From positions 79,856,001 to 79,920,000 of the forward strand of contig NC_058368.1 in NCBI RefSeq assembly GCF_018350175.1: 64,000 nucleotides of DNA. Reading direction: 5' to 3'. Of this stretch, positions 9,225 to 47,383 are shown piece by piece. Within the stretch, counting starts at the first letter, position 1. Every line of letters begins with the position of its first letter. The DNA is from Felis catus. Taxonomy: Eukaryota. A program made the translations under genes and the position numbers. Under the pieces are notes generated by a model. It saw only the letters and a program-made list of their open reading frames with translations, was not told where the DNA came from and ran no database searches.

Positions 9225-9495
9225 GGTGAGCGGGTGGCTGGTGAGCATGCGGCGGGACGTGACTGGTGAGCGTTGTAGCGGGACGGGATTGGTGAATATG
9301 CACCAGGGCGGGATTGGTGAGCGTGCGGCGGGACGTGATTGGTGAATATGAGCGGGACGGGATTGGTGAATATGCAGCAGGGCGGGATTGGTGAGCGTGC
9401 GGCGGGACGTGATTGGTGAATATGAGCAGGGCGGGATTGGTGAGCGTGTAGCAGGATGAGATTGGTGAACAGGTGGTGAGACGGGATTGGTGCCC
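9225..9495. repeat. 24-26 bp minisatellite with an ATTGG (CCAAT) core and 74-bp higher-order structure
   Basis: ATTGG at 9288, 9313, 9338, 9362, 9387, 9412, 9436, 9461, 9486; degenerate units at 9237 and 9262. Confidence 0.95.
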
Positions 9496-12849: not shown

Positions 12850-13850
12850 GTCATTCCCGGGCCAAGGAGTTCACAGGCTGCCATGACGCCACTGGGCCCC
12901 GCCTTCCCCCAGGGCACGTGGTTGACCCGAGGGACCCCGGCCCACGTAGCAGGGAGGTGTCTCACCACGGGGAAGAGGCAGGCACGGGGAGAAGCCGGGG
13001 TTTGGAGACCCGGAACCAGGCATCAGCTTCACGCGGCATCTCCGACAGGCCCCAGGTGATGGGCGAGGCCGTGTGTGCAAACGTGAGCGGAGCCATCCCC
13101 GACGGGCACCTCCCCCCTGGATGTTGCCGCCAGACGGTGCTCCTTGGAAACGGCCCTTCTCTGGCAGTTGTGCACACAGCCAGTGTGTGCAGGCCCTGGG
13201 CGGGGCGGTGAGCGCCTTCATTCTGCCAGGCTTTCTCCTTCTGCACAACCAGCTCTGTTCTGGACCCTTCTCCCCTCACCTCACTTCCTCTGCGCCTGGC
13301 CGGCTCCGGGGGGGAGGAGCAGCCCCTCGTCCTTCCCTCCCCCGCGGCCGCGTGTCGCGTGTGGTGCAGAGCAAGGGGCCTCCCTGCGCGTGTTCCTGGT
13401 GGACTGAAGGCCACGAGCTTCTCTAGCCCACGTCCTTTACTGCAGCTCCCGTGAGACTTGAATTACATGGGACGCCGGCAACTGTGAGATCCAGGAAGCA
13501 AATTCTGTATCTAAGCAGAACACCGTGTGCCCGTCCGCAAAGCTTTCCCCACGATCTCGCCGCTCCACGGACGGATTGGTGGTCCCATGGAACCCAGTGT
13601 GCCAGGCCTGTGCCTGCGCCTGGCAGCGGGGCGGCAACCTGCCGAGACAACGCGCCCTGTCCCTTGGTTACACTGAGTCTGCGGGGCAGGGCGGGGCTGT
13701 CGAGGCGGGGCCGCCACACGCCCTCGCGTCCACGCGCTTGGCGCGTCATTTCGTGCCCGGCCTCTCGGGTGCTCGTAAAGCCAGCCGTGTCTTTACCGGA
13801 TGGCCCCGCAGCTTCTCTGCCAGATCCTTGCCCGAAAGCAAAGAAACAAT
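12850..13850. promoter_or_regulatory. CpG-rich patch (weak orphan island)
   Basis: High CpG density, especially 13550-13800. Confidence 0.45.
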
Positions 13851-14480
13851 ATCGACAAATCCACAGGAAGATTGAGCGCAACTTTAAGTAGAACGGCCCC
13901 AAACTGGAAACCACCCAGATGCCTGCCATCAGGAGAGTGAATGGAGAGTGAAGAAGTCCTATCCTGAGAGATACACCAGCGGCAGTAAGGAGCCAGTGGT
14001 AGGGATGGGTCTGCCGCTCGCACAGAAGGAAAGCAGACGGAGAGCATGGGTGCCTCCTCACCAAGTTCCGCAACACGTTTATCCCGACAGAAACCAGGAA
14101 ACGGTTCCCTGGGTCGGGGAGCACGAACCGACCAACAAGGGAAATAGGGAACACTCTGGGTGATGGAAGGTTCCCTGTCTTGCTATGACTAGGGATATGC
14201 TGGCGTAGGCACTTGTCAAAACTCATTGTCATACTTTTTTAATGTGTATTTATTTGTTTTCAGAAAGAGAGAGAATGTGTGTGATGGGGGGAGCAGCAGA
14301 GAGAGAGAGGGGAGAGGGAGAATCCCAAGCACGCTCTGCACCATCAGCACAGAGCCCGATGTGGGGCTCAAATCCACAAACCATGAGATCACGACCTGGG
14401 CCGACATCAGGAGTTGGATGCTTAATCGACTGAACCGCTCGGGTGCCCCTCGTTGCCATACTTAATGTCTCTAAAAAATG
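13800..14480 (+). mobile_element. Old L1M 3' end fragment interrupted by a SINE
   Basis: ccaaactggaaaccacccagatgcctgccatcaggagagtgaatgga; ggaacactctgggtgatggaagg. Confidence 0.6.
14235..14449 (-). mobile_element. CAN-SINE
   Basis: Reverse SINEC body; ttgtcatact/ttgccatact flanks. Confidence 0.9.
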
Positions 14481-30254: not shown

Positions 30255-31600
30255 CCGCGGAGTCCCGCCAGCAGCCGGCCATCTGCTGCAGAGTGGCCTC
30301 GGGACAGTGACACCGAGGAAAAAGGCATCGTGCTGCTGCTGGAAGCAAACCCTGCGGCCCGCGGAGGCGCTCCCTAACAGGAGGGTGGGGTGCCCTCTGC
30401 AGTTTGTTCCGGAAATTTCCCCTACACAGGAAGAGATCAGATGTACGTGCTGTTTCACTGAACGGCCAGCAGGGAGCAGTCTGCAGGGATTTCCCGTTTG
30501 CATCCGAGAAATAAACACCCCTGAAGGCAGAGTGTCCCGGTCCTTTTTGTGCCACCTGCCCCAGGCAGCGAGTACAGGAAATCAGTGGGGAAGGTTTCTG
30601 CGAGGACCGACCGGTGGCGGGGGGGGGGGGGGGGGGGGGGGGGGGGATGACAAAACAGAACGGAGTCCCGGAAGTCACCTGCGGCTGTGCTCCAGAGTAG
30701 AAGGCTCGAGGGGGCATTTCCCGATCGCGGCTGGGTGACCCGGGTTCACCGTGACTCAGCGCGGCTCCCGGTGGCTCAGGCAGGGCAGGCGAGGCCCTGG
30801 GAAGGCGCGGCTATTGGGGGCCAGGAAAGGGGACGGGGCGGGGGGGGGGCGCGGGGAAGTACAAATGGGGCGTTCACGAGAGGGAGGAGCCTGTGGGGAT
30901 GATTCAGAGGGGCCGAGCCCGGCTCTCCAGGCAAGCCGGCAGGGGCAGGGCGGGAGGGGCGGCCAAGCCCTCGTGCAGGTGGGCGAGAGCTGTGTCAAGG
31001 TGACCCTGTCCCCCCCCCCACCCCGCCCCGCAGGCGCGGCAGGTCAGGCTGCACCGCGGAGGCCCCGCGGCCGGGAGACCAGGCTCTCCGCCGCATCCAC
31101 GGAGGGCCCAACGCACTCGTCGGTACAATTCGGCTCCTTGGTTTCCGGATTCCAGAGCTTCGGTTTTAACTTAGAGAAAAAAATGTGACGCTTTTTACTA
31201 ATAAATTGCAAACAAATGTGAAATGCCTGGGTAGCAGGGAAACGGTGCCTCGGGGCGGGGAGGGGAATGACCCCGGGGTCTGCAGGACAGGGCGCTGGGT
31301 GGGCACGTCGTCGCCCGGAGCCGCGCTCAGGGAAGATCCCGGGCGTCCCCTCCCATCCCACCTCTAGGGTTCAGGTGACCCCGCGGCAACAGGTGTAAGA
31401 ACAACCCCCAAGACGGAGGCTCAGTGATGGACCCGGGAGGACCCGGTCCTGGATTCAGAATCATTTCAACACGGTTCTGAGAAGAGCTGGCTGCATGGTG
31501 GGGGGTGAATGCAGGGCTGTAAAGGCGGCGGCGCACCGTCTGTTTCTGGATGGGTGAGAGCTGGCGGGGGGGGGGGGGGGGGGGGGGCGGGGCGGGGGGG
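30255..31600. promoter_or_regulatory. Orphan CpG island with poly-G runs, about 10 kb downstream of COL4A1
   Basis: CpG-dense, GC boxes, AP-1 TGACTCA near 30752, G28 at 30619-30646 and G22 at 31566-31587. Confidence 0.65.
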
Positions 31601-32801: not shown

Positions 32802-33124
32802 GGAGAGGTGGAGGGAGGGAGGAGGGAGACAGGGAGGGAGGGATGGATGGAGGAGGCAGGGAGGAGGGAGGGATGGATGGAAGGACGGAGGGAGGGAGGA
32901 GGGAGGAAAGGAGGGAGGGAGGAAAGGAGGGAGGGATGGATGGGTGGAGGGAGAGAGGAAAGGAGGAAGAAAAGAAGGGAGGAAGGGAGGGAGGAAAGGA
33001 GGGAGGGAGGGATAGCTGGAGGAGGGAGGGAGGGATGGATGGACGGATGGAGGGTGGGAGGGAGGAGGGAGGAAAGGAAGAAGGAAAGAAGGGAGGGAGG
33101 GAGGGAGGGATGGAGGAGGGAGAG
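32802..33124. repeat. Polypurine (GGAG/GGAT/GGAA) low-complexity tract
   Basis: About 320 bp, almost purely G/A. Confidence 0.93.
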
Positions 33125-33224
33125 CAGGGTGAGTGCCAGAAAACAGCTTTTTCCTTTTCTTATCAATTCTTCCCAGTCTATGACTCTGGTTTGGAAGAAC
33201 TGCAAAATAAAAATGACCAAGGTT

Positions 33225-33320
33225 ATGGAGGCCTCTGAGAGGTTATATACCTTGCTCAAGGTCATGAGTTTGTAAGTGGCAGGGTCAGAATCTGAAGTCA
33301 GAGCTGTCTGGTTGCACGAG
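33225..33320 (+). mobile_element. MIR fragment
   Basis: gagaggttatataccttgctcaaggtcatgagtttgtaagtggcag. Confidence 0.65.
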
Positions 33321-36300
33321 TACAACAGAATGACCCTTGATTCAAGTACAGATTGTGGAGGACAGACCCAGCCTCAGAGCGCCAGGGCGTGGGAGGTCTG
33401 GTGTGAAGATGATGGCCCCCGACACGAGCATAGGCCAGTGAATGTCACTGAAGCATAGTTGAAGCATAGAACCAAAAAGCGTTTGGGAAGACCCAGCACT
33501 ATCTATTACCAGAAAAGCCACCGTGTGATAGTTAACCGAATCAACGACTTACCACGCATTCAGGCACTAGAAACAAACATGGGAAAAACTAAAGATGAGC
33601 AAAATCAAACCATTTGTTCCTCTTCTGTGCCTCACCGTCACTCTCGCCACCATCAAAACTAGTACTCAACGCTTCTGAACTGGGATCGTGTTGGTACTGG
33701 CTCCAGGTAGGACTGAGTGCACACACCCCAGCCTGTCTCTCCACGATGCAGTAGCCAATAAAGGACCAGCAGCAGACAGACCAGTGAAAACAACCAGGTT
33801 GAGACATGCCACCAAAGCAGTGGGAGACTTCACCACATTTCTCCTTTGCTCCCATCCCCCTTCAGCCCGACTGTGGCCGCAGTCCCAGGAAGTGTGCACA
33901 GAGTGAAGGAAGTAAACACCAAGGTATTGTGGACAAGAGATCAAACAGAGGGACCTCCAAACACTGGCAAGTACTGGGAAGGTGACAAGGAGGACAGACC
34001 TCGAGAAGAAGTCTGCAAAGTTGTGTGTGAGCGCTTGGACCCGTCTTGGGTCTGTGCAGATGACGCTATGGCTCTAAGGGCCATGCCAACAACGTGGAAG
34101 GCTGACCCCACCACTCACACCCCAAGGAGGCGCAGGGTGGCATTCGAGCAGGACAGATCCGAGTGGCGCCGCAGAAACGGATGTGACCCTGGAACCACAG
34201 ACCACGGGAGCCAAGCTGGGACCTGGAATCTTGACCCTGACCAGACCGATGTCCTGCCAGAAATATCCACATTTCCCACAGGAGGAAGACACGAATCTAC
34301 AGGTTCAGAAGGTTCCGAGGACCCAATCCGTGCCCAGACGTACCATAATCAATAACTTGAAAATTGAGGACAATGAAAAATCTTCAAAGCAGCCCGAGAA
34401 CATCATTTCGAGAAGAGTAATGATTCGAATGGCTGGGGGTTTATTATCAGGAACTGCAGAGACCAGAAGAAGAGGACACACAGTTTTGATTGCCAGGAAA
34501 AAGAAAGCTGCCAGAATGCACGGGCAGAGGAAAAATCCTTCAGGAAAGGTGAAGTAAAGATATTTCTAGATGAAGGAAACCTCCAGGAACTTGCTGCCAG
34601 CACACTTACTCTAAGAGGATTGTCAAAGGAGGTTCCTCAGACACAAGAGAAAGCCTGGGGTGCCGGGAATACAGGAGGAGAGCAAAAAAAAATTTTTTTA
34701 AGATGTTGCAAACAGAAAACAAGTGATAAAAAGCTGTATCAATAGCCAAACACACAAGTCATGACATTATGCATGAACACGGGCTAACCACACCAACTAA
34801 AAGACAGAGATTGTCAGAGGGAAATTTTAAAACAACTCAACTATACGTTGTCGTCAAGAATCTCACTTCAAATATAATGATGTAGGTGGATTAAAAGTAC
34901 GAGACTAGAAAAGATGGAGTGAGTGGCTTGACGAACATCAGACAAAGTAGATTTCAGAGCAAAACAATACTTTCCAGGGATAAAGAGGCACAGAGTGTAA
35001 AGATAAAAGCATCAACTCATCACGAAGACATAACAAGATTAAATGTGTATACACCTAAGAGCAGAACTTGAAGAAAAAAAAAGACAGGGCAAACACTATC
35101 CTAACTGGAAGAAGTTAGAAAGTTCCTAAGTAACATCAGACACTCCAACCCTCATCTCTCGATGACTGATAGAAATTTAAGGATATAAAACAACTGAACA
35201 ATACCACCAATCAAATGGATTCTAGCTGACATTCATAGAACAATCTATGAACACTAGCTGAATACGTATTCCTTCCAATCAAACATGGAACATTTACCAA
35301 GAAAGATGTTACCCTTGGTCATAAAATAAACCTTAACAAATGTAAGATCACTGAAATCATATACAGTGGGTTCTGTGATTGTAACAAAATAAACCAGAAA
35401 TCGAAAACGGGATTATAACGGGAAAATCTACAAACACTTGGAAACAAAACAATTAACTTCCAAAATAACCATGGATCTAAGGGAGTAGCAAAGAAAATTA
35501 GAAATTAGTTTGAGGTGAAAGAAGATGAAAATACAATATCATGGGATTTGTGGGATACAAAAATAAGTGCCCGCAGGGATATTTGTAGCATCAAATGCTT
35601 ATATTAAAAAAGAATAAAAGTCTCAAATGAATCATCTAAACGTCCACCTGCAGAAACTAGAAAAAGAAGAGCAAAATAGCCTCAACATAAGAACAGAAAA
35701 GGAAATAATAAAGATACGAGTTTTAAAAAAAAACAATAAAACCGAAAGCAAAAAACACCAATAGAAATCAATGAAACCAAATCTAGTTTTTTGAAAAGAT
35801 CAATAATATTGATAAACTTCTAACAGGTTTGACAAAGAAAAAGAAGGTACAAATTATCAATATCAAGGGAGATATAAAGGGTGTCACTACAGGCTCAATG
35901 AACACAAGGAAAAGGGGATTCTGAGAACAACTCTACACACATGATTTTGACAACTTGCAGTGGATTAATTTCTTAAAAGGAAAAACTATCAAACTCATCC
36001 AAAATGAAATAGGTAACTTGAATAGCCCTGTCACTATTTTTTAAATGATCTTATGATTAAAAACCTTCCACAGGAGAAATTTGCTGGTCCAGATTTCACT
36101 GGCAACTTCTACTAAACATTTAAAGAATACCACCAACTCTTCCAGAGAATAGAAGAGGAGGGGATATTTCCCAGATCATTTTTTTTGACCATGACATTAC
36201 CTGACACACAAACCAGGCAAAGACAAGACAAAAAAGGAACGGTAAAAATGAATTTCCCTCACTAGCACGAGCACAAAAACCTCCAGTTAAAATATCAGCA

Positions 36301-37505
36301 AGTCAAATCCAGCAAAATGTAAAAATGATACACCATGACCAAGTGTGCTGTATCCTGGAAATTTAAGACTGGCCCGACCTTCATTTGTCACTGTTATCCA
36401 CAATATTAACAGTTTAAAGAGGAAATCTCCCATGATAGCTGATGCAGAAAAAGCACTTGACAAGATTCAACATCCAGTCATGATAAAAACTCTCCAGTAT
36501 AAAGGCATCTACATAAACACCTACAGTTAACATCATACTTAACAGTGAAAAGACTACGTGCCTTTTCCTTAGGGTCAAAAACAAGGGAAGTATGTCCAGG
36601 CCCACCACTCCTATTCAACATTGGATTCGAGGTGCTGGCCAGTGCAAAAAATCAAGGAAAAGAACAGAGTAGATGCTGGAGTATGGAGAGGAAGGTATAG
36701 AAGGGTCCCTCTTCATAGAAAACATGAGTGTCTATGCAGAAAATCCTAACAAAGCTACAAAAAGAAATCCTCCTAGAACTATGAAGTGAACTTGGGAATG
36801 TCACAGGATCCAAATCAATATACATAGAAAAACCAATCATATTTATGTAGATTAGATAGGTACGATTGAAAGTCAAAAATTTTTTTAAAGAATTCCTCTA
36901 ACAATGGCTCTTAAAAAACACTCAGGTACAAATCTAACCAAAATGGACACAATCTGTATACTGGAAACTATAAAATGATAATTAAAACATCAAAGGAGAC
37001 CATAAAATAAACATTAAAAAAAACCCATCAAAGAAGACCTAAATCAATGAAAAGACATACCATGTTCTTGGAATGTAAGATTCAGTAAAGCTGACAATTC
37101 TTCCCAAATTGATGAATAGATTTAATACAATTCCAATCAAAACCCCAGAAGGATTTTTCTGTAGCCAAATCCCAAATTTATACCGAAAAGCAAAGAGACT
37201 CGAGTAGCTAAAACAATTTTGGAAAGGAAGCACAGAACAGGAGGAATCACACCAACTGATGTAGACTTACTTTAAAGCTAAATTAACCAAGAGGGCACAG
37301 TGTTGGTGAAGGCAGTCACACAGATTGATGAAACAGAATAGAGTCCAAAAACAGACCCGCACAAATCAGCAATGCAATATAAAGTCAGCTAAATGAAGAG
37401 AAAGTAGCCTTTCTCAACAACTAAACAATTGGATAGCCATATGTGAAATAATAATCTAAAACTTACATGTCATTTAAAGAATTAGTCAAATGGATCATAG
37501 AACAC

Positions 37506-38747
37506 TGGTGGCCAACTGATTTTTGACAAAACTGTCAAGACTCTCCAATGGGGAAAAGACAGTCTCTTTAATAAATGGTGTAAGACAACAGGATACACAC
37601 ACGCAAAAGAGTGTAGCTGGTTCCCACCCTCACACCACATACAGAAATTAATTCATAGTGGACCAATGACCTAATGTAAGAGCTAAAATCATTAAACACT
37701 TACAGGAGAACATAGGGGTAAATGTTCACGGCCTTGGGTTTGGAAATGCGTTCTTTGATATGACATGAGACCGAGCAGCCAAAGAGAAATAGATAAATTG
37801 TAACTAATCATGATTGTAAAATTTTGTGCATCAAAGAACGTTATCAAGAAAGTAAAAAGGCAGCCAACAGGACGGAAGAATATATTTGCAAATCGTGTAT
37901 CTGGTAAGAATCTGCATACAGAATAAAGAACATTTACCAAAAAAAAATTTTTTTTTTAATAGGCAAAGGACTTAAAGCTCTTTCTTCAAAGAACATACAT
38001 AGATGGCCAACAAGCACATGAAAAGATGCTCGACATCATCAGAAATTAGGGAAATGCAAGTCAAAACCACAAGGAGATACCACCTCACACCCAGTGGAAG
38101 GGCTACAGTCAACAGAAAATGGCACGTGTTGGAGACGATATGAGAAATGGGAACCGTGGCACATTGTTGGCAGGGGTGGAAAACAGTTCAGCTTCAAAGC
38201 AAAAGAATATGATGGTCCCACAAAAAGTTAGACTCCAGTAACCACAGGACTCTTCAAGGCCACTCCTTGTTACCTACTCCAAAGAATTGAGAGCAGGGAT
38301 GTCAATATGGAGCCGTCATGTTCACAATAGCCAGAAGGTCCCAACAGCCCACACACCCATCAGTGGATGAACGGCTAACCAAACTGGTATATCCATCCAA
38401 TGGACATTCTTCAGCCATCAAAACCAGCGAAGAACTGACACGTGCCACAGGGTGGGTGAACATCCAAACCATTATGCTCAGTGAGAGAAATCAGACACAG
38501 CAGCCACACACTGGATTATCCCACTGCCTGAAATCCAGAGTCAGAAAATCCAGACTTGCAGCTGACTGGTGGTTTCCAGGGGTTGGGAGCCACTGTTGAC
38601 TGGCTCTGGATTCGGGGTGATGAAAAATACCTCTAGTTAACATAGACGTAGTGAATTCACATTGCGGCTGTCCTAAATGCCACTGAAGGGTTGGCTTTCT
38701 GGTGGTGAATTTTAAGTTATGTGAATGTCATCAATTAAAAAAAATTA
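37506..38747 (+). mobile_element. Second L1 3' fragment inserted into the larger L1
   Basis: The late-ORF2/3'UTR region occurs twice in series; diverged TSD 37487-37505/38748-38766. Confidence 0.7.
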
Positions 38748-39086
38748 CAAGTGGGTCACAGATCACAATGTAGTCAGTGAAATCATAAAGCTTGCAGAAG
38801 AAACCAGGAGAAAATCTTAGTAACCTAGGAGTAATCAAAAAGTTCTTAAACACAATACCAAAAGCACATCCCATGGAAAAGATATGGATAAATTGGACAC
38901 CATCAAAATGAAAAACCTTAGCTCTGTGGAAGATACTGTTAGGAGGATGAATTTGCAAATCACCTATCTAGCAAATGGCTGACAAGCAGAGCATCCAAAG
39001 AATTTTTAAAACTCAACAGTATGAAAAGGGACATTTTTCAAGTGGGCAAAATTTAATAGATACTTCAAAGAAGAGGAGGTGTTGAT

Positions 39087-39541: not shown

Positions 39542-39673
39542 NNNNNNNNNNNNNNNNNNNNNNNNNNNNNNNNNNNNNNNNNNNNNNNNNNNNNNNNNNN
39601 NNNNNNNNNNNNNNNNNNNNNNNNNNNNNNNNNNNNNNNNNNNNNNNNNNNNNNNNNNNNNNNNNNNNNNNNN
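39542..39673. other. Assembly gap (132 N)
   Basis: Run of n. Confidence 1.
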
Positions 39674-42690: not shown

Positions 42691-42720
42691 TGTTGTACGT
42701 TAGCTGAGGGCCGGGTTTCA

Positions 42721-42802
42721 TTATGTTCTTCTCATACAGACTTGGCAACGGCTGACGTGTGTGCGCAGCTCCCCCGCCTTCAAGGTGGACGGCGTGGGCT
42801 TC
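42721..42802 (-). CDS. COL4A1: COL4A1 terminal exon (52 equivalent), coding part
   Basis: 82 nt, tgtag|GAAGCCC...; [29 protein letters not shown], followed immediately by an in-frame TGA; contains NC1 Lys211. Confidence 0.98.
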
Positions 42803-44346
42803 CTACAAGGCAACCCAGAAACCAGCTGTCAGCGCCGCTGCTCCACGAGGCAGGCGAGCCCCTCAGCAGCCCCCACCTTTCCTGGAGCCCCCCCCCCCCG
42901 AGGGGCCGGATGAAGGGGGTGGGCCCAGCCCATGACAAGCAGCGACCACTGCTCGCCCTGACCTAGTGGGCACCGCGCTGGGTGTCACCCGCCCTCACAG
43001 TGCGGGGAGGGACAGGGGCCGTGCACGACATCACGTCACCCCCATGCGTGGCCGTGAGGCTGGTGGTGGCCCAATCGCACGCACAGGTGAGGGCACAGCC
43101 ACAGCCATCCCGTGCCTGTTGGGCTCTAAAGTCTGAGCCACTCCCAGGGCACCGCACAGCCTCCTTGGACTGTGACTTTCCCACTCCAACCTTTCTCCTT
43201 GACCAGACCACTCGCTCCTCCCGGGGAGGAAGGTGCTCTTCTCTGTGACCCTTCACACACAGAGGGAGAGCTCATTAAACATTGGTTGTAGGGTGTGATG
43301 AGCAATGAATCTGGAACAATTAACCAGACCTCGAAATACTTTCATAAGCTTTTGCCAGAGTTCTATGCAGGTGGTCGGACTGGAGGCCAGAGGGGAAGAC
43401 AGTTAGTGTCCCAAATGCTCTTTGATCCTAGGAATTCTGTCTTAAGTTGACCGTTAGTGGGGTGAAGTCAGAACCGAAGTTGGCACTAACCAAATTCTAC
43501 TAAAAAGGTAGCCACAGAAAACAAGTAACTTGTCCTCAAATTAAGGCTGCTTCTAAGCAACTTCTATGAAAACCATATTGCCCCTAAACTAATTATTTAA
43601 ATTAATAGGATCTTATCTAATTTTGTTTTAGTTCATCGTACCAGGCTGCTGTTCTATTAACCCTATAATGGAAGCCCGAGAACCTGATACACCTGCCGAG
43701 TGCTCAGTGAGGCAGCTGATGGTTAAGCTTTATCCGGAGAGTTGATGTCAAGCTTCCAAATGCCTGCAGGGTTTCATGTACGCTATGAATTAGGTCCCCG
43801 GTACTTTTTTGGTGCTTAAAGAATTACAAACAGAGAGTGTGTTACTCTGTCTCTTATGATCTAAGCCCAGGAAGAGAGGGGCTCACAACAGAGTTCCAGA
43901 AAATTCTCTCTGAAAAGGTAAAGGCAGAAAGGCTTGTCCCCAGGGGCGAGCGGCACTTATTTCGGGAAGGAACAGTAAGCATTGGGGCTCCATCAGCCTC
44001 GTGTCTGCCCCAGCAGGGGATGGGGCCAGTGCTGCCAAAGGACAGAGGACTCGTCGTGTGCTCCCCTCCATCCCCACCGTGCAGGCCCCACACTGACTTC
44101 AGCAAGGTCAGCAGCCATTTGGGACAGCTGTCATAAAGGTGAAGTGGTGCTAGCAGAAAAGAAAGGTAAGGTCCTCCCTATCAATTTCAGCTGCACTTGT
44201 GCCAAAATTCATGTTTATTTGCATGGGTTTAATAAAGTCTTGCTTCGTCCCTCAGAACTCACTCTGTACATACACTGGAGTCGGCACTACAACTGCTAGA
44301 AGGCAAATACTGCCCTTTCCTCTCTCACCAATGTTAAATGTGCAAT

Positions 44347-44604
44347 ATTTTTATTTTTTGAATTTTTAAAAATGTTTGATTTATTTATTTTGAGAGAGTG
44401 TGTGTGCGTGCAAGCAGGGGAGCAGCAGAGACAGACGGCAGGGGCAGGGGTGGGGGGGAGAGAAAGAGAGAGAGATTGCCAAGCAGGCTCTGAGCTGTCA
44501 GAGCCCTGAGCCCCATGCAAAGCTCGATCCCACGAACTGTGAGACCATGACGTGAGCAGAAATCAAGAGTCAGAAGCTAACTGACTGAGCCACCGAAGTA
44601 CCCC
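44347..44604 (-). mobile_element. CAN-SINE in the last COL4A1 intron
   Basis: TSD caatattttt. Confidence 0.88.
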
Positions 44605-44842
44605 CAATATTTTTAAATGCTCTGTTTAAAGACTCCAGATGCTTTAACTACACTGTAGTGGCGCCACCTACAAAAATGGAAGAACTGAACCCATAACTTG
44701 AGATCTGCCTTTGAAGTCTGACCCGGTTATCTGTCCACACAGAACAGAATCGAATATTCATTACCTCCTGTGGAACACACGTTCCTAATCAGTTTTATAA
44801 CCATCCAGAAGACCAAGACTGAAAGCCCCAAAGGCGGCTGAG

Positions 44843-45240
44843 CAGCAGAGAGGCCCCGCCCCAGCAGAGAGGGCCCCGCCCCAAGAGCAGAGAGGGCCCC
44901 GCCCCAGCAGAACAGAGGGCCCCGCCCCAGCAGAGAGGCCCCGCCCCAACAGAGGCCCTGCCCCAGCAGGGAGGCCCCGCCCCAGCAGAGGCCCTGCCCC
45001 AAAAACAGAGAGGCCCCGCCCCAGCAGACAGGCCCTACCCCAACAGCAGAGAAGGCCCTGCCCCAGCAGAGGTCCGATGCCAGCAGAGAGGCCCCTCCCC
45101 AACACCAGAGAGGGCCCGCCCCAGCAGAGAGGCCCCGCCCCAGCAGAGGCCCCGCCCCAACACCAGAGAGGCCCGCCCCAGCAGAGAGGCCCCTCCCCAA
45201 CACCAGAGAGGGCCCCTTCCCAGCAGAGAGGGCCGCCCAG
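44843..45240. repeat. GC-box minisatellite, about 20 units of 17-23 bp (consensus cagcagagaggccccgcccc)
   Basis: Counted by eye; abuts the exon 51 donor. Confidence 0.95.
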
Positions 45241-45245
45241 ACTTA

Positions 45246-45554
<309 letters not shown>

Positions 45555-47383
45555 CTAACTCGGCATGGCCAGTCCGGCTTCATCAGCACTTAGAGAAATG
45601 CTGTCCTAGTTATTATTTTTGAAACACTTGACACCTCCTCTAACTTGGGACAGAAGAAACAGCCAAAATGTGTAAATGATGTTGGAACCCATACATGCAA
45701 AATCAAGCTTTCTAATCAACATCCTGGAGGATAATTAAAATCCTGAATTTGCTGCATTGGATGCTATGTATCCTTTTATAAGGTAAAGAACAATCACCCA
45801 TTACTTGCCTTTAAAAAGAGAGATCATTTAAAGAAGAAGAAAAAAAAGTAACCACTACTGTAACTTAAAATGCACTTTAGTCTAATGGGTTCAAGTAGGA
45901 TCTACCTGTGCTCAGAAACCAGGGCCATAAGATAAATGACCCCAAATGAGACAAGACATTCCAAAATCCACCATCACTATTATTTCAGACATGAGAATTT
46001 CAGGGCCCTTTGAAGACAAAGCTAATGCCCTCCATTCCCAGATGAGGACTGGATGACGCTAGAACATTCTGGATCTGACAATGGTCCCAGTTTTGAGGCC
46101 AAGCTGAGACAAGAACAGGGGTCTCCAGACTGTGGGGCCAGAGCCCCTCCACCTCCCCACAATGCCCCTTAAGCCTGGGAAGTGATGGAGAACTTGCTCC
46201 CTGGGACACCATTACTTTAGTTTGCTCTTGATTTAGGGAAATTATGGGCAATCATTGTTTCACATCTTTGTAGGACAAAAGGCTTTCCTGAGGCTCTTTA
46301 CTCCTTGGGCCAGGGGCTACTTGTGTCATCACGAGGTTCTGCTGAGTATTTCTTATGATTATACAGGCAAAACATTCAATCTGTCTCATCACTGCTGGTG
46401 TCTTGACTTCTCTACACTGTAGTTCTAACTTTTTGGCTTTCCCAATCAAGTAGTTACCATGCAGTATTTAGAACCATCAAAGCAACTAACTTTCTGTGTG
46501 GCTGCAAATTCTCTGGTCCTGTTGAAGAGTCTACCTGAAGCATCATCAACCCAGGAAATCTCACAACCAAACGTGAATACAGACACAAGTGCTTTAAAAT
46601 TGCTTTTCTGGCACCTTCTGCACTTGGGATCACTGCAGCAGAAGAAAACAGTTATGAAGCCACTTTCCCAGTCAATACATAATAGGCTAGAGATCATCTG
46701 GGGGTCAAAACGTCCAGGCGGCCATACCTGAGACTGAGGAGGGGCGGGGCTTAGTGTGAGCCAGAAGGTTTCCGTGCAGGGCCCTTACTGTGGCTTACCC
46801 GGTACAACCTGACTTGACCGGTTCAGAGCCTTCATATATGCAATCACTTCTTTAAACTGAGGCAATAAAATAAAGTAACCAGCCACCATGGGATCACAAG
46901 CAGGTGCCATATTTCCTGTGTTAACTGGTATTTCAGGGGTGGGCACATCGGACACCTGGTGTCTGGGACAGCTGAGTGGCAGGAGAGTGTCCTCACGCTC
47001 CCAGACACTGGCCAGAGCCCCTGCTGCCTCTGCCCGATGCACACCACTGCTTCAGGCTTGCATGAGCTGCCTGAATGGGCACCCGTCTCCTCTCCTCCTG
47101 GGGAGACGCTCTGACTCCCGGAAACCTTCTCCTGGTGTCCCTGCCACCTAGTTCTGGAGCAGCCCCTCGGGAGGCAGGAGGTAGGCTCCGGCCGGGTGTG
47201 GGAGCAGCTGCCATCCACAGTGGAGCAGGCCAGGCCCCTGGGGATGCTTTGGACTGGGCGGCCCAGCAAGGGAAGAGAGGCCTGCCCGGCATGAGCCAGC
47301 CAACTGAGGGTGGGAGCATGGAGGCGGTGGTAGTGTTAGCGGGAGGCTCTTCAGGGGTGCAGGGAGTTTCCCCAAATGCTCAC

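Follow-up and report, generated by a model that had tools for sequence, protein, structure and literature searches.

A G4-prone minisatellite adjoining the last donor of COL4A1 in Felis catus, probably an ordinary, decaying repeat

Gene context of the array

COL4A1 is encoded on the minus strand, and its 3′ part falls in the right third of the window (the whole 64-kb stretch of DNA that was analysed). The penultimate exon (45247..45419, minus strand; 173 nt) encodes NC1 residues 146-203. Its peptide matches residues 146-202 of the alpha1(IV) NC1 chains 1li1_A and 1m3d_A (E 9e-46), and the alpha1 part of 6mpx_A contains it unchanged. Since human COL4A1 has 52 exons (PMC3459649), "exon 51" is a fair label for it. 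Downstream lie the last intron (42803..45246, minus strand; 2,444 nt) and then the last exon, whose coding part (42720..42802, minus strand) contains Lys211 and ends in ...RRT and the stop codon of the gene. The NC1 domain spliced from the last exons comprises 229 aa, including Met93 (M93) and Lys211 (K211).

The 5′ splice site of the last intron (45239..45249, minus strand) reads CAA/GTAAGTCT, and read-through past it immediately meets an in-frame TAA. Computed translations show that retention of the intron would stop NC1 at Lys203, while skipping of the 173-nt exon would remove NC1 residues 146-203 and frameshift the remainder, leaving 210 aa. The exon size, the frameshift upon skipping and the loss of Lys211 are as originally predicted, and retention loses Lys211 as well. 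After either event, the stop falls in the last exon or the last intron, and such transcripts would likely escape junction-dependent decay.

An orthologue search of metagenome contigs returned 54 loci, none of them a mammalian COL4A1 gene. Introns were assessed in 48 of these, and six were dropped because the match was too short or stopped before reaching the end of the exon. One locus (L001) is an alpha5-like paralogue, another (L006) a spliced transcript that ends ahead of the donor. An intron of the same phase was found in three of the 48 loci (one alpha5-like paralogue and two distant animals), with 1-2 runs of three Gs in the first 100 nt, which makes for a weak control. Two distant collagen IV genes (L004 and L005) share both the phase-2 position and the GTAAGT donor, so the position of the last intron is ancient.

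Structure of the array

Positions +7 to +404 of the last intron are taken up by a G-rich 19-bp minisatellite of 20 units (44843..45240, minus strand). Tandem Repeats Finder reported it at 44843-45231/45238 with a period of 19, 19.6 copies, 74% matches, 15% indels and a score of 329. Parsing of the pre-mRNA strand yielded 20 unit cores, the first starting at +8, in agreement with the roughly 20 units of the original prediction; a period of 19 places these head-to-tail units within the definition of a minisatellite (units of at least 7 bp). Each unit consists of two G runs flanking a C (the GC box) and a CU-rich linker. The perfect box GGCCCCGCCCC occurs nine times in the 64 kb, counting both strands, and every copy lies within the array. 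CCCGCCCC was found 11 times (two beyond the nine perfect boxes) and CCCCTCCCC twice, which reproduces exactly the predicted nine perfect and four further boxes. The hexamer GGGCGG is kept in 12 units. Runs of at least three Gs on the pre-mRNA strand number 37 (29 of four and eight of three), beginning at +9, so that there are indeed dozens of such runs directly behind the donor.

The longest exact repeat inside the array measures 38 bp, and the unit variants are mixed, without a long perfect tract. No gradient of variants along the array was detected (Mantel rho -0.03, p 0.62), and there is a weak tendency towards dimers, with a mean distance between units of 4.4 at lag 2 versus 5.2 at lag 1. 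The short exact repeats together with the missing gradient suggest an old, mixed array. A coding role was considered and rejected, since the frames that extend from stop to stop across the array yield low-complexity translations of the repeat.

Donor strength, G runs and RNA folding

The last donor (CAA/GTAAGT) matches U1 at 9 of 11 positions, a count that serves as a crude stand-in for MaxEntScan. Among the 13 donors of COL4A1 that fall in the window, it is the joint best, and no other has a perfect GTAAGT. It is followed by six runs of at least three Gs in the first 70 nt and nine in the first 100 nt, compared to one to six in 100 nt for the other 12 donors. Were the array collapsed to one unit, two of these nine G3 runs would be left, which speaks against an ordinary minisatellite.

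Intronic G runs are reportedly bound by hnRNP F/H and act as splicing enhancers (Xiao et al. 2009). The COL4A1 runs resemble such elements in consisting of three to four Gs that lie no more than 100 nt beyond a 5′ splice site, in a mammalian intron of high GC content (PMC12062376, PMC3606033), and the claim that they sit where these enhancers act is borne out by the counts above. They differ in forming a 400-bp tandem array behind a donor that is the joint best U1 match in the window instead of a weak or intermediate one. In TP53 minigenes, a weak donor (MES 2.6) needed its intronic G runs, whereas exon 3 with its strong donor (MES 9.68) tolerated their loss (PMC12062376). Given its strong-looking donor, the COL4A1 exon would probably be included without the array.

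The array has a mean G4Hunter score of approximately 1.0 (0.99), with a best 25-nt window of 2.12. None of 146 other intronic windows of 400 nt exceeded 0.47, and the originally proposed RNA G4 potential is supported by this predictive score. A canonical motif of four G3 tracts with loops of 1-7 nt has no match in the array; allowing loops of up to 12 nt, six non-overlapping motifs are predicted. The loops alternate between 1-2 nt and 8-14 nt or longer. Folding with ViennaRNA gave -252.4 with G4s allowed versus -234.8 without them, a gain of ~18 kcal/mol with three G4s in the model, in which the CU-rich linkers compete through hairpins. The ordinary fold is no better than that of shuffled sequences (z -0.9). 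The only donor-like word in the array is a weak GGG/GTAGGG near +208. The GC skew of the RNA-like strand amounts to only 0.205 and is equalled or exceeded in 10 of the 146 other intronic windows, and a special R-loop bias is not supported.

Potential polyadenylation signals lie farther down the intron. A sense SINE copy (44340..44610, minus strand), with many relatives in the window, which we take to be carnivore Can-SINEs, has an A-rich tail with AATAAA at +858 and +892. It is followed by candidate intronic polyadenylation signals at 44214..44233 (minus strand; ATTAAA at +1014 and AATAAA at +1028) with 2-3 upstream UGUA words. Together, the four hexamers span 44389-44214 (+858 to +1033), the AATAAA copies lying 450-620 nt beyond the array, and cleavage there would, by computation, truncate NC1 at Lys203. 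The density of such hexamers is 1.6 per kb in the last intron and 1.0-2.3 per kb in four array-free introns.

These data bear on the possibility that the array functions as an RNA element, in which hnRNP F/H loading or G4 folding would set the rate of last-intron removal and guard against skipping, retention and cleavage at an intronic AATAAA. A donor flank with more G runs than those of the other 12, the exceptional G4Hunter score, the folding gain and the four hexamers downstream would suit such a role, as would the severity of the outcomes averted (a frameshifted NC1 of 210 aa or a stop at K203). Precedents exist in TERT VNTR6-1, an intronic G4 minisatellite that can shift the splicing of an exon as far as 3.5 kb away (PMC11830802), and in 9,537 human repeats associated with splicing (PMC10078293). 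However, the donor looks strong, and in two comparable cases, TP53 exon 3 (PMC12062376) and the F7 repeat discussed below (PMC1557585), splicing withstood changes to the G runs. The hexamers are equally dense in introns that have no array. Moreover, no canonical G4 motif is present, every second loop is long, linker hairpins compete and the ordinary fold is unremarkable. We consider this reading unlikely, albeit the most serious of the alternatives. As for the splicing role proposed originally, the position of the G runs and the stake of Lys211 stand, while a dependence of the exon on the array is disfavoured by its donor.

CpG erosion and GC boxes

Compared to the modal unit, 23 substitutions were scored, 10 of which fall on just two of the 19 unit positions, the CpG of the GC box; several of the 13 non-CpG substitutions depend on the alignment. 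The p value for this clustering (5e-5) is overstated, because variants are shared and fewer than 10 events are independent. Among the 10 changes at the CpG, six are of the C>T or G>A type. The other four are transversions, and three of these (C>A) fall within a GA-box-like core or leave one intact. This focus on CpG would fit germ-line methylation followed by deamination of methyl-CpG. As the decayed bases are central to the Sp1 consensus, the boxes are apparently not being kept as Sp1 sites. Sp1 and some KLFs are able to bind methylated GC boxes, so CpG decay is no proof that the boxes are unbound. The 37 G runs have survived in the 20 two-run units better than the CpG, which would also fit selection on G runs at the RNA level.

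The CpG O/E of the array is 0.25, rising to 0.51 when the exon and the end of the intron are included, and 8 of the 20 cores have lost their CpG; the array is not island-like. The 173-nt exon has an O/E of 0.95, compared to 0.65-0.86 in the other NC1 exons measured and a window mean of 0.46; it is CpG-rich as claimed, yet close to its neighbours. Upstream in the gene, the adjoining 354 bp (45247-45600) show a GC content of 0.63 and an O/E of 0.88. Frames of 500 bp that pass a GC content of 0.55 and an O/E of 0.65 number 42 in the window, several of them inside the gene body. Between 44700 and 45700 there is one TATAAA and no CCAAT. Three further CpG-island-like stretches without a long protein-like frame are located downstream of COL4A1 (1300-2900, 13100-14200 and 30400-31600); they are possible enhancers or non-coding promoters.

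At the DNA level, the array could be regarded as a homotypic cluster of Sp/KLF sites, working either as an enhancer inside the gene or as an antisense promoter that fires into the CpG-rich exon. Nine perfect 11-mer boxes and 12 GGGCGG hexamers within 400 bp match the consensus closely, and the GC- and CpG-rich sequence upstream in the gene would be a suitable setting. Tandem Sp1 sites are found in regulatory DNA in the ALOX5 promoter, the CSTB dodecamer repeat and the VNTR in IL1A intron 6, and the COL4A1 array is like them in its tandem GC-box copies. The ALOX5 and CSTB repeats are situated in promoters, whereas the COL4A1 array, with its eroding CpGs, lies at the far 3′ end of a gene body. 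The CSTB VNTR is mentioned, and intronic VNTR enhancers are cited as precedent, in bioRxiv 2020.11.03.367367. Against a regulatory role speak the box CpG being the most eroded site, the low O/E in a window where many other frames pass island-like thresholds, and the near absence of core promoter words. Motif clusters are, in addition, expected from any amplified GC-rich seed. A role at the DNA level is therefore improbable, and the originally predicted Sp1 enhancer or antisense promoter finds little favour.

Seed amplification and other arrays in the window

As a tandem repeat, the array is far beyond chance; as a GC-box cluster, it goes back to a single seed present in 20 copies and counts once. 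When each 19-mer of the window was made tandem, GGGCGG was contained in 1.4% of all 63,361 cases, in 10.5% of the 5,979 with a GC content of at least 70% and in 16.6% of the 2,494 that in addition had two G3 runs. The window's other long-unit array of at least 200 bp served as a control. This 25-bp minisatellite (9239-9492; ~10 copies) lies in a CpG-rich patch and contains nine ATTGG (CCAAT box), eight GCGGGA (presumably E2F-like) and three GGGCGG words. Since it repeats boxes as well, and in view of the 19-mer odds, motif clusters would arise in any amplified GC-rich seed. Another array, of the GGAG/GGAA type (32810-33122; 80 copies, G runs on the plus strand) has 38 G runs per 400 nt, compared to 35 in the COL4A1 array.

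Only 130 of 19,214 intronic bases (0.7%) lie within 10 nt of a donor, and this position counts against an ordinary minisatellite. G-rich words are, however, enriched at donor flanks in GC-rich isochores, where their gain is often effectively neutral (PMC3606033), and minisatellites are abundant: a human catalogue lists 191,286 loci, with one in 49% of genes and ~19% of loci variable (bioRxiv 2020.11.03.367367). Together with the F7 case, these facts offset the unusual position.

Comparison with known minisatellites

The closest parallel is the 37-bp minisatellite next to the donor of F7 IVS7, whose units carry two G triplets each and in which neither deletion nor addition of units nor mutation of the triplets changed splicing (PMC1557585). 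The two arrays share a location at the very start of the intron and paired G runs per unit. In F7, the donor is part of the unit and repeated as pseudo-sites, whereas the COL4A1 donor lies outside the unit; the F7 donor is the weaker one (CV 74), and the F7 array is polymorphic in length (PMC1557585). TERT VNTR6-1 is likewise intronic, G-rich on the sense strand and prone to form G4s. It has 24-66.5 copies with proven effects on alternatively spliced exons 3.5 kb off, whereas the COL4A1 exon is without known alternative use and has a strong-looking donor. VNTR6-1 is absent in non-primates (PMC11830802), and by analogy a restriction of the COL4A1 array to certain lineages is to be expected. Like CEB1 and CEB25, the array is a tandem repeat of a GC-rich unit, with G and C distributed very unevenly between the strands and a potential for non-canonical G4s. 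Instability of these G4 minisatellites in yeast required short loops (PMC5491262), whereas the COL4A1 array alternates loops of 1-2 nt and 8-14 nt, in keeping with its old, mixed look.

For the human gene, the string COL4A1 was absent from the VNTR tables of PMC8096271, and the common and private tables contained no chr13 row starting with 11015; the reference list was covered for 300 of its 7,652 pages. COL4A1 was found in 0 of 10 supplement files of PMC10078293 (all but one of its files). A human repeat at this site could be listed in the remainder. No publication on the array in the last COL4A1 intron was found among the listed matches of a literature search that covered few subscription journals.

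Interpretation

Taken together, the data point to an ordinary, G4-prone and decaying minisatellite whose RNA is likely bound by hnRNP F/H and would at most be a redundant splicing enhancer, a reading to which we assign a probability of roughly two in three (about 0.68). Its starting point is the observation that one unit is repeated 20 times with mixed variants. The seed would have been the first pair of G runs in the intron, an ordinary G-rich donor flank in a GC-rich region, amplified via slippage or unequal repair and perhaps aided by G4 formation. Expansion into the donor itself would have been purged. Germ-line methylation and deamination may then have eroded the CpG of GC boxes that were not maintained as Sp1 sites. 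In the nascent RNA, hnRNP F/H on the first G runs could support U1, with the exon being included regardless: nine of 11 U1 matches, together with the negative results for the strong TP53 donor and for F7, argue that the donor probably does not need the array. The remainder of the array RNA would fold into hairpins and long-loop G4s and be removed with the intron.

Most likely, the array is thus of little importance, as a member of a known and often silent class of G-rich minisatellites next to donors. It may be of use as a marker, and it is a reminder that a tandemly duplicated motif counts once. Should it modulate processing of the last intron after all, aberrant transcripts would encode an NC1 domain without Lys211 and likely escape decay. 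COL4A1 mutations are antimorphs or neomorphs (PMC3459649), and so even small amounts of an aberrant chain might count.

A more elaborate scenario is that a lineage-specific GC-box minisatellite was co-opted as a pad for hnRNP F/H that holds U1 and suppresses SINE-derived polyadenylation 450 nt farther on, with array length tuning the share of chains ending at Lys203. If so, such alpha1(IV) chains would lack the lysine of the Met93-Lys211 cross-link and weaken basement membranes, and one repeat would compensate for another. We regard this chain of events as highly improbable and favour the ordinary minisatellite.

Presence of the array in sequencing data

Of 38 words sampled from the array, 37 (0.97) were present in 14 sequencing runs from 13 samples and five studies. 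These shares refer to the best-ranked runs, one of which may be the window's own source; each of the 14 misses one of the 38 words, and heterozygous or longer alleles would not register in this comparison. Of the 374 31-mers in the array, 358 occur in a single copy, and an animal lacking one unit on both chromosomes would be expected to show a word share of 0.87-0.94, so the sampled animals carry the reference-like order of units. The reference-like allele is common among them; as a VNTR in the sense of the original prediction, the array is a candidate. Matching runs were saturated by a single organism label and have no bearing on other species. Six RNA or possibly-RNA runs with word shares of 0.18-0.95 were not counted as evidence. 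Despite an assembly gap in the window (132 N at 39542-39673) and the one word that each of the 14 runs lacks, an artefact of the assembly or an expansion private to the sequenced individual is extremely improbable in view of the high word share across samples and studies and the unit order recovered.

Elsewhere in the window, an A-rich and strongly AT-skewed block extends over ~33000-39000, which we take to be a LINE-1 element on the plus strand.
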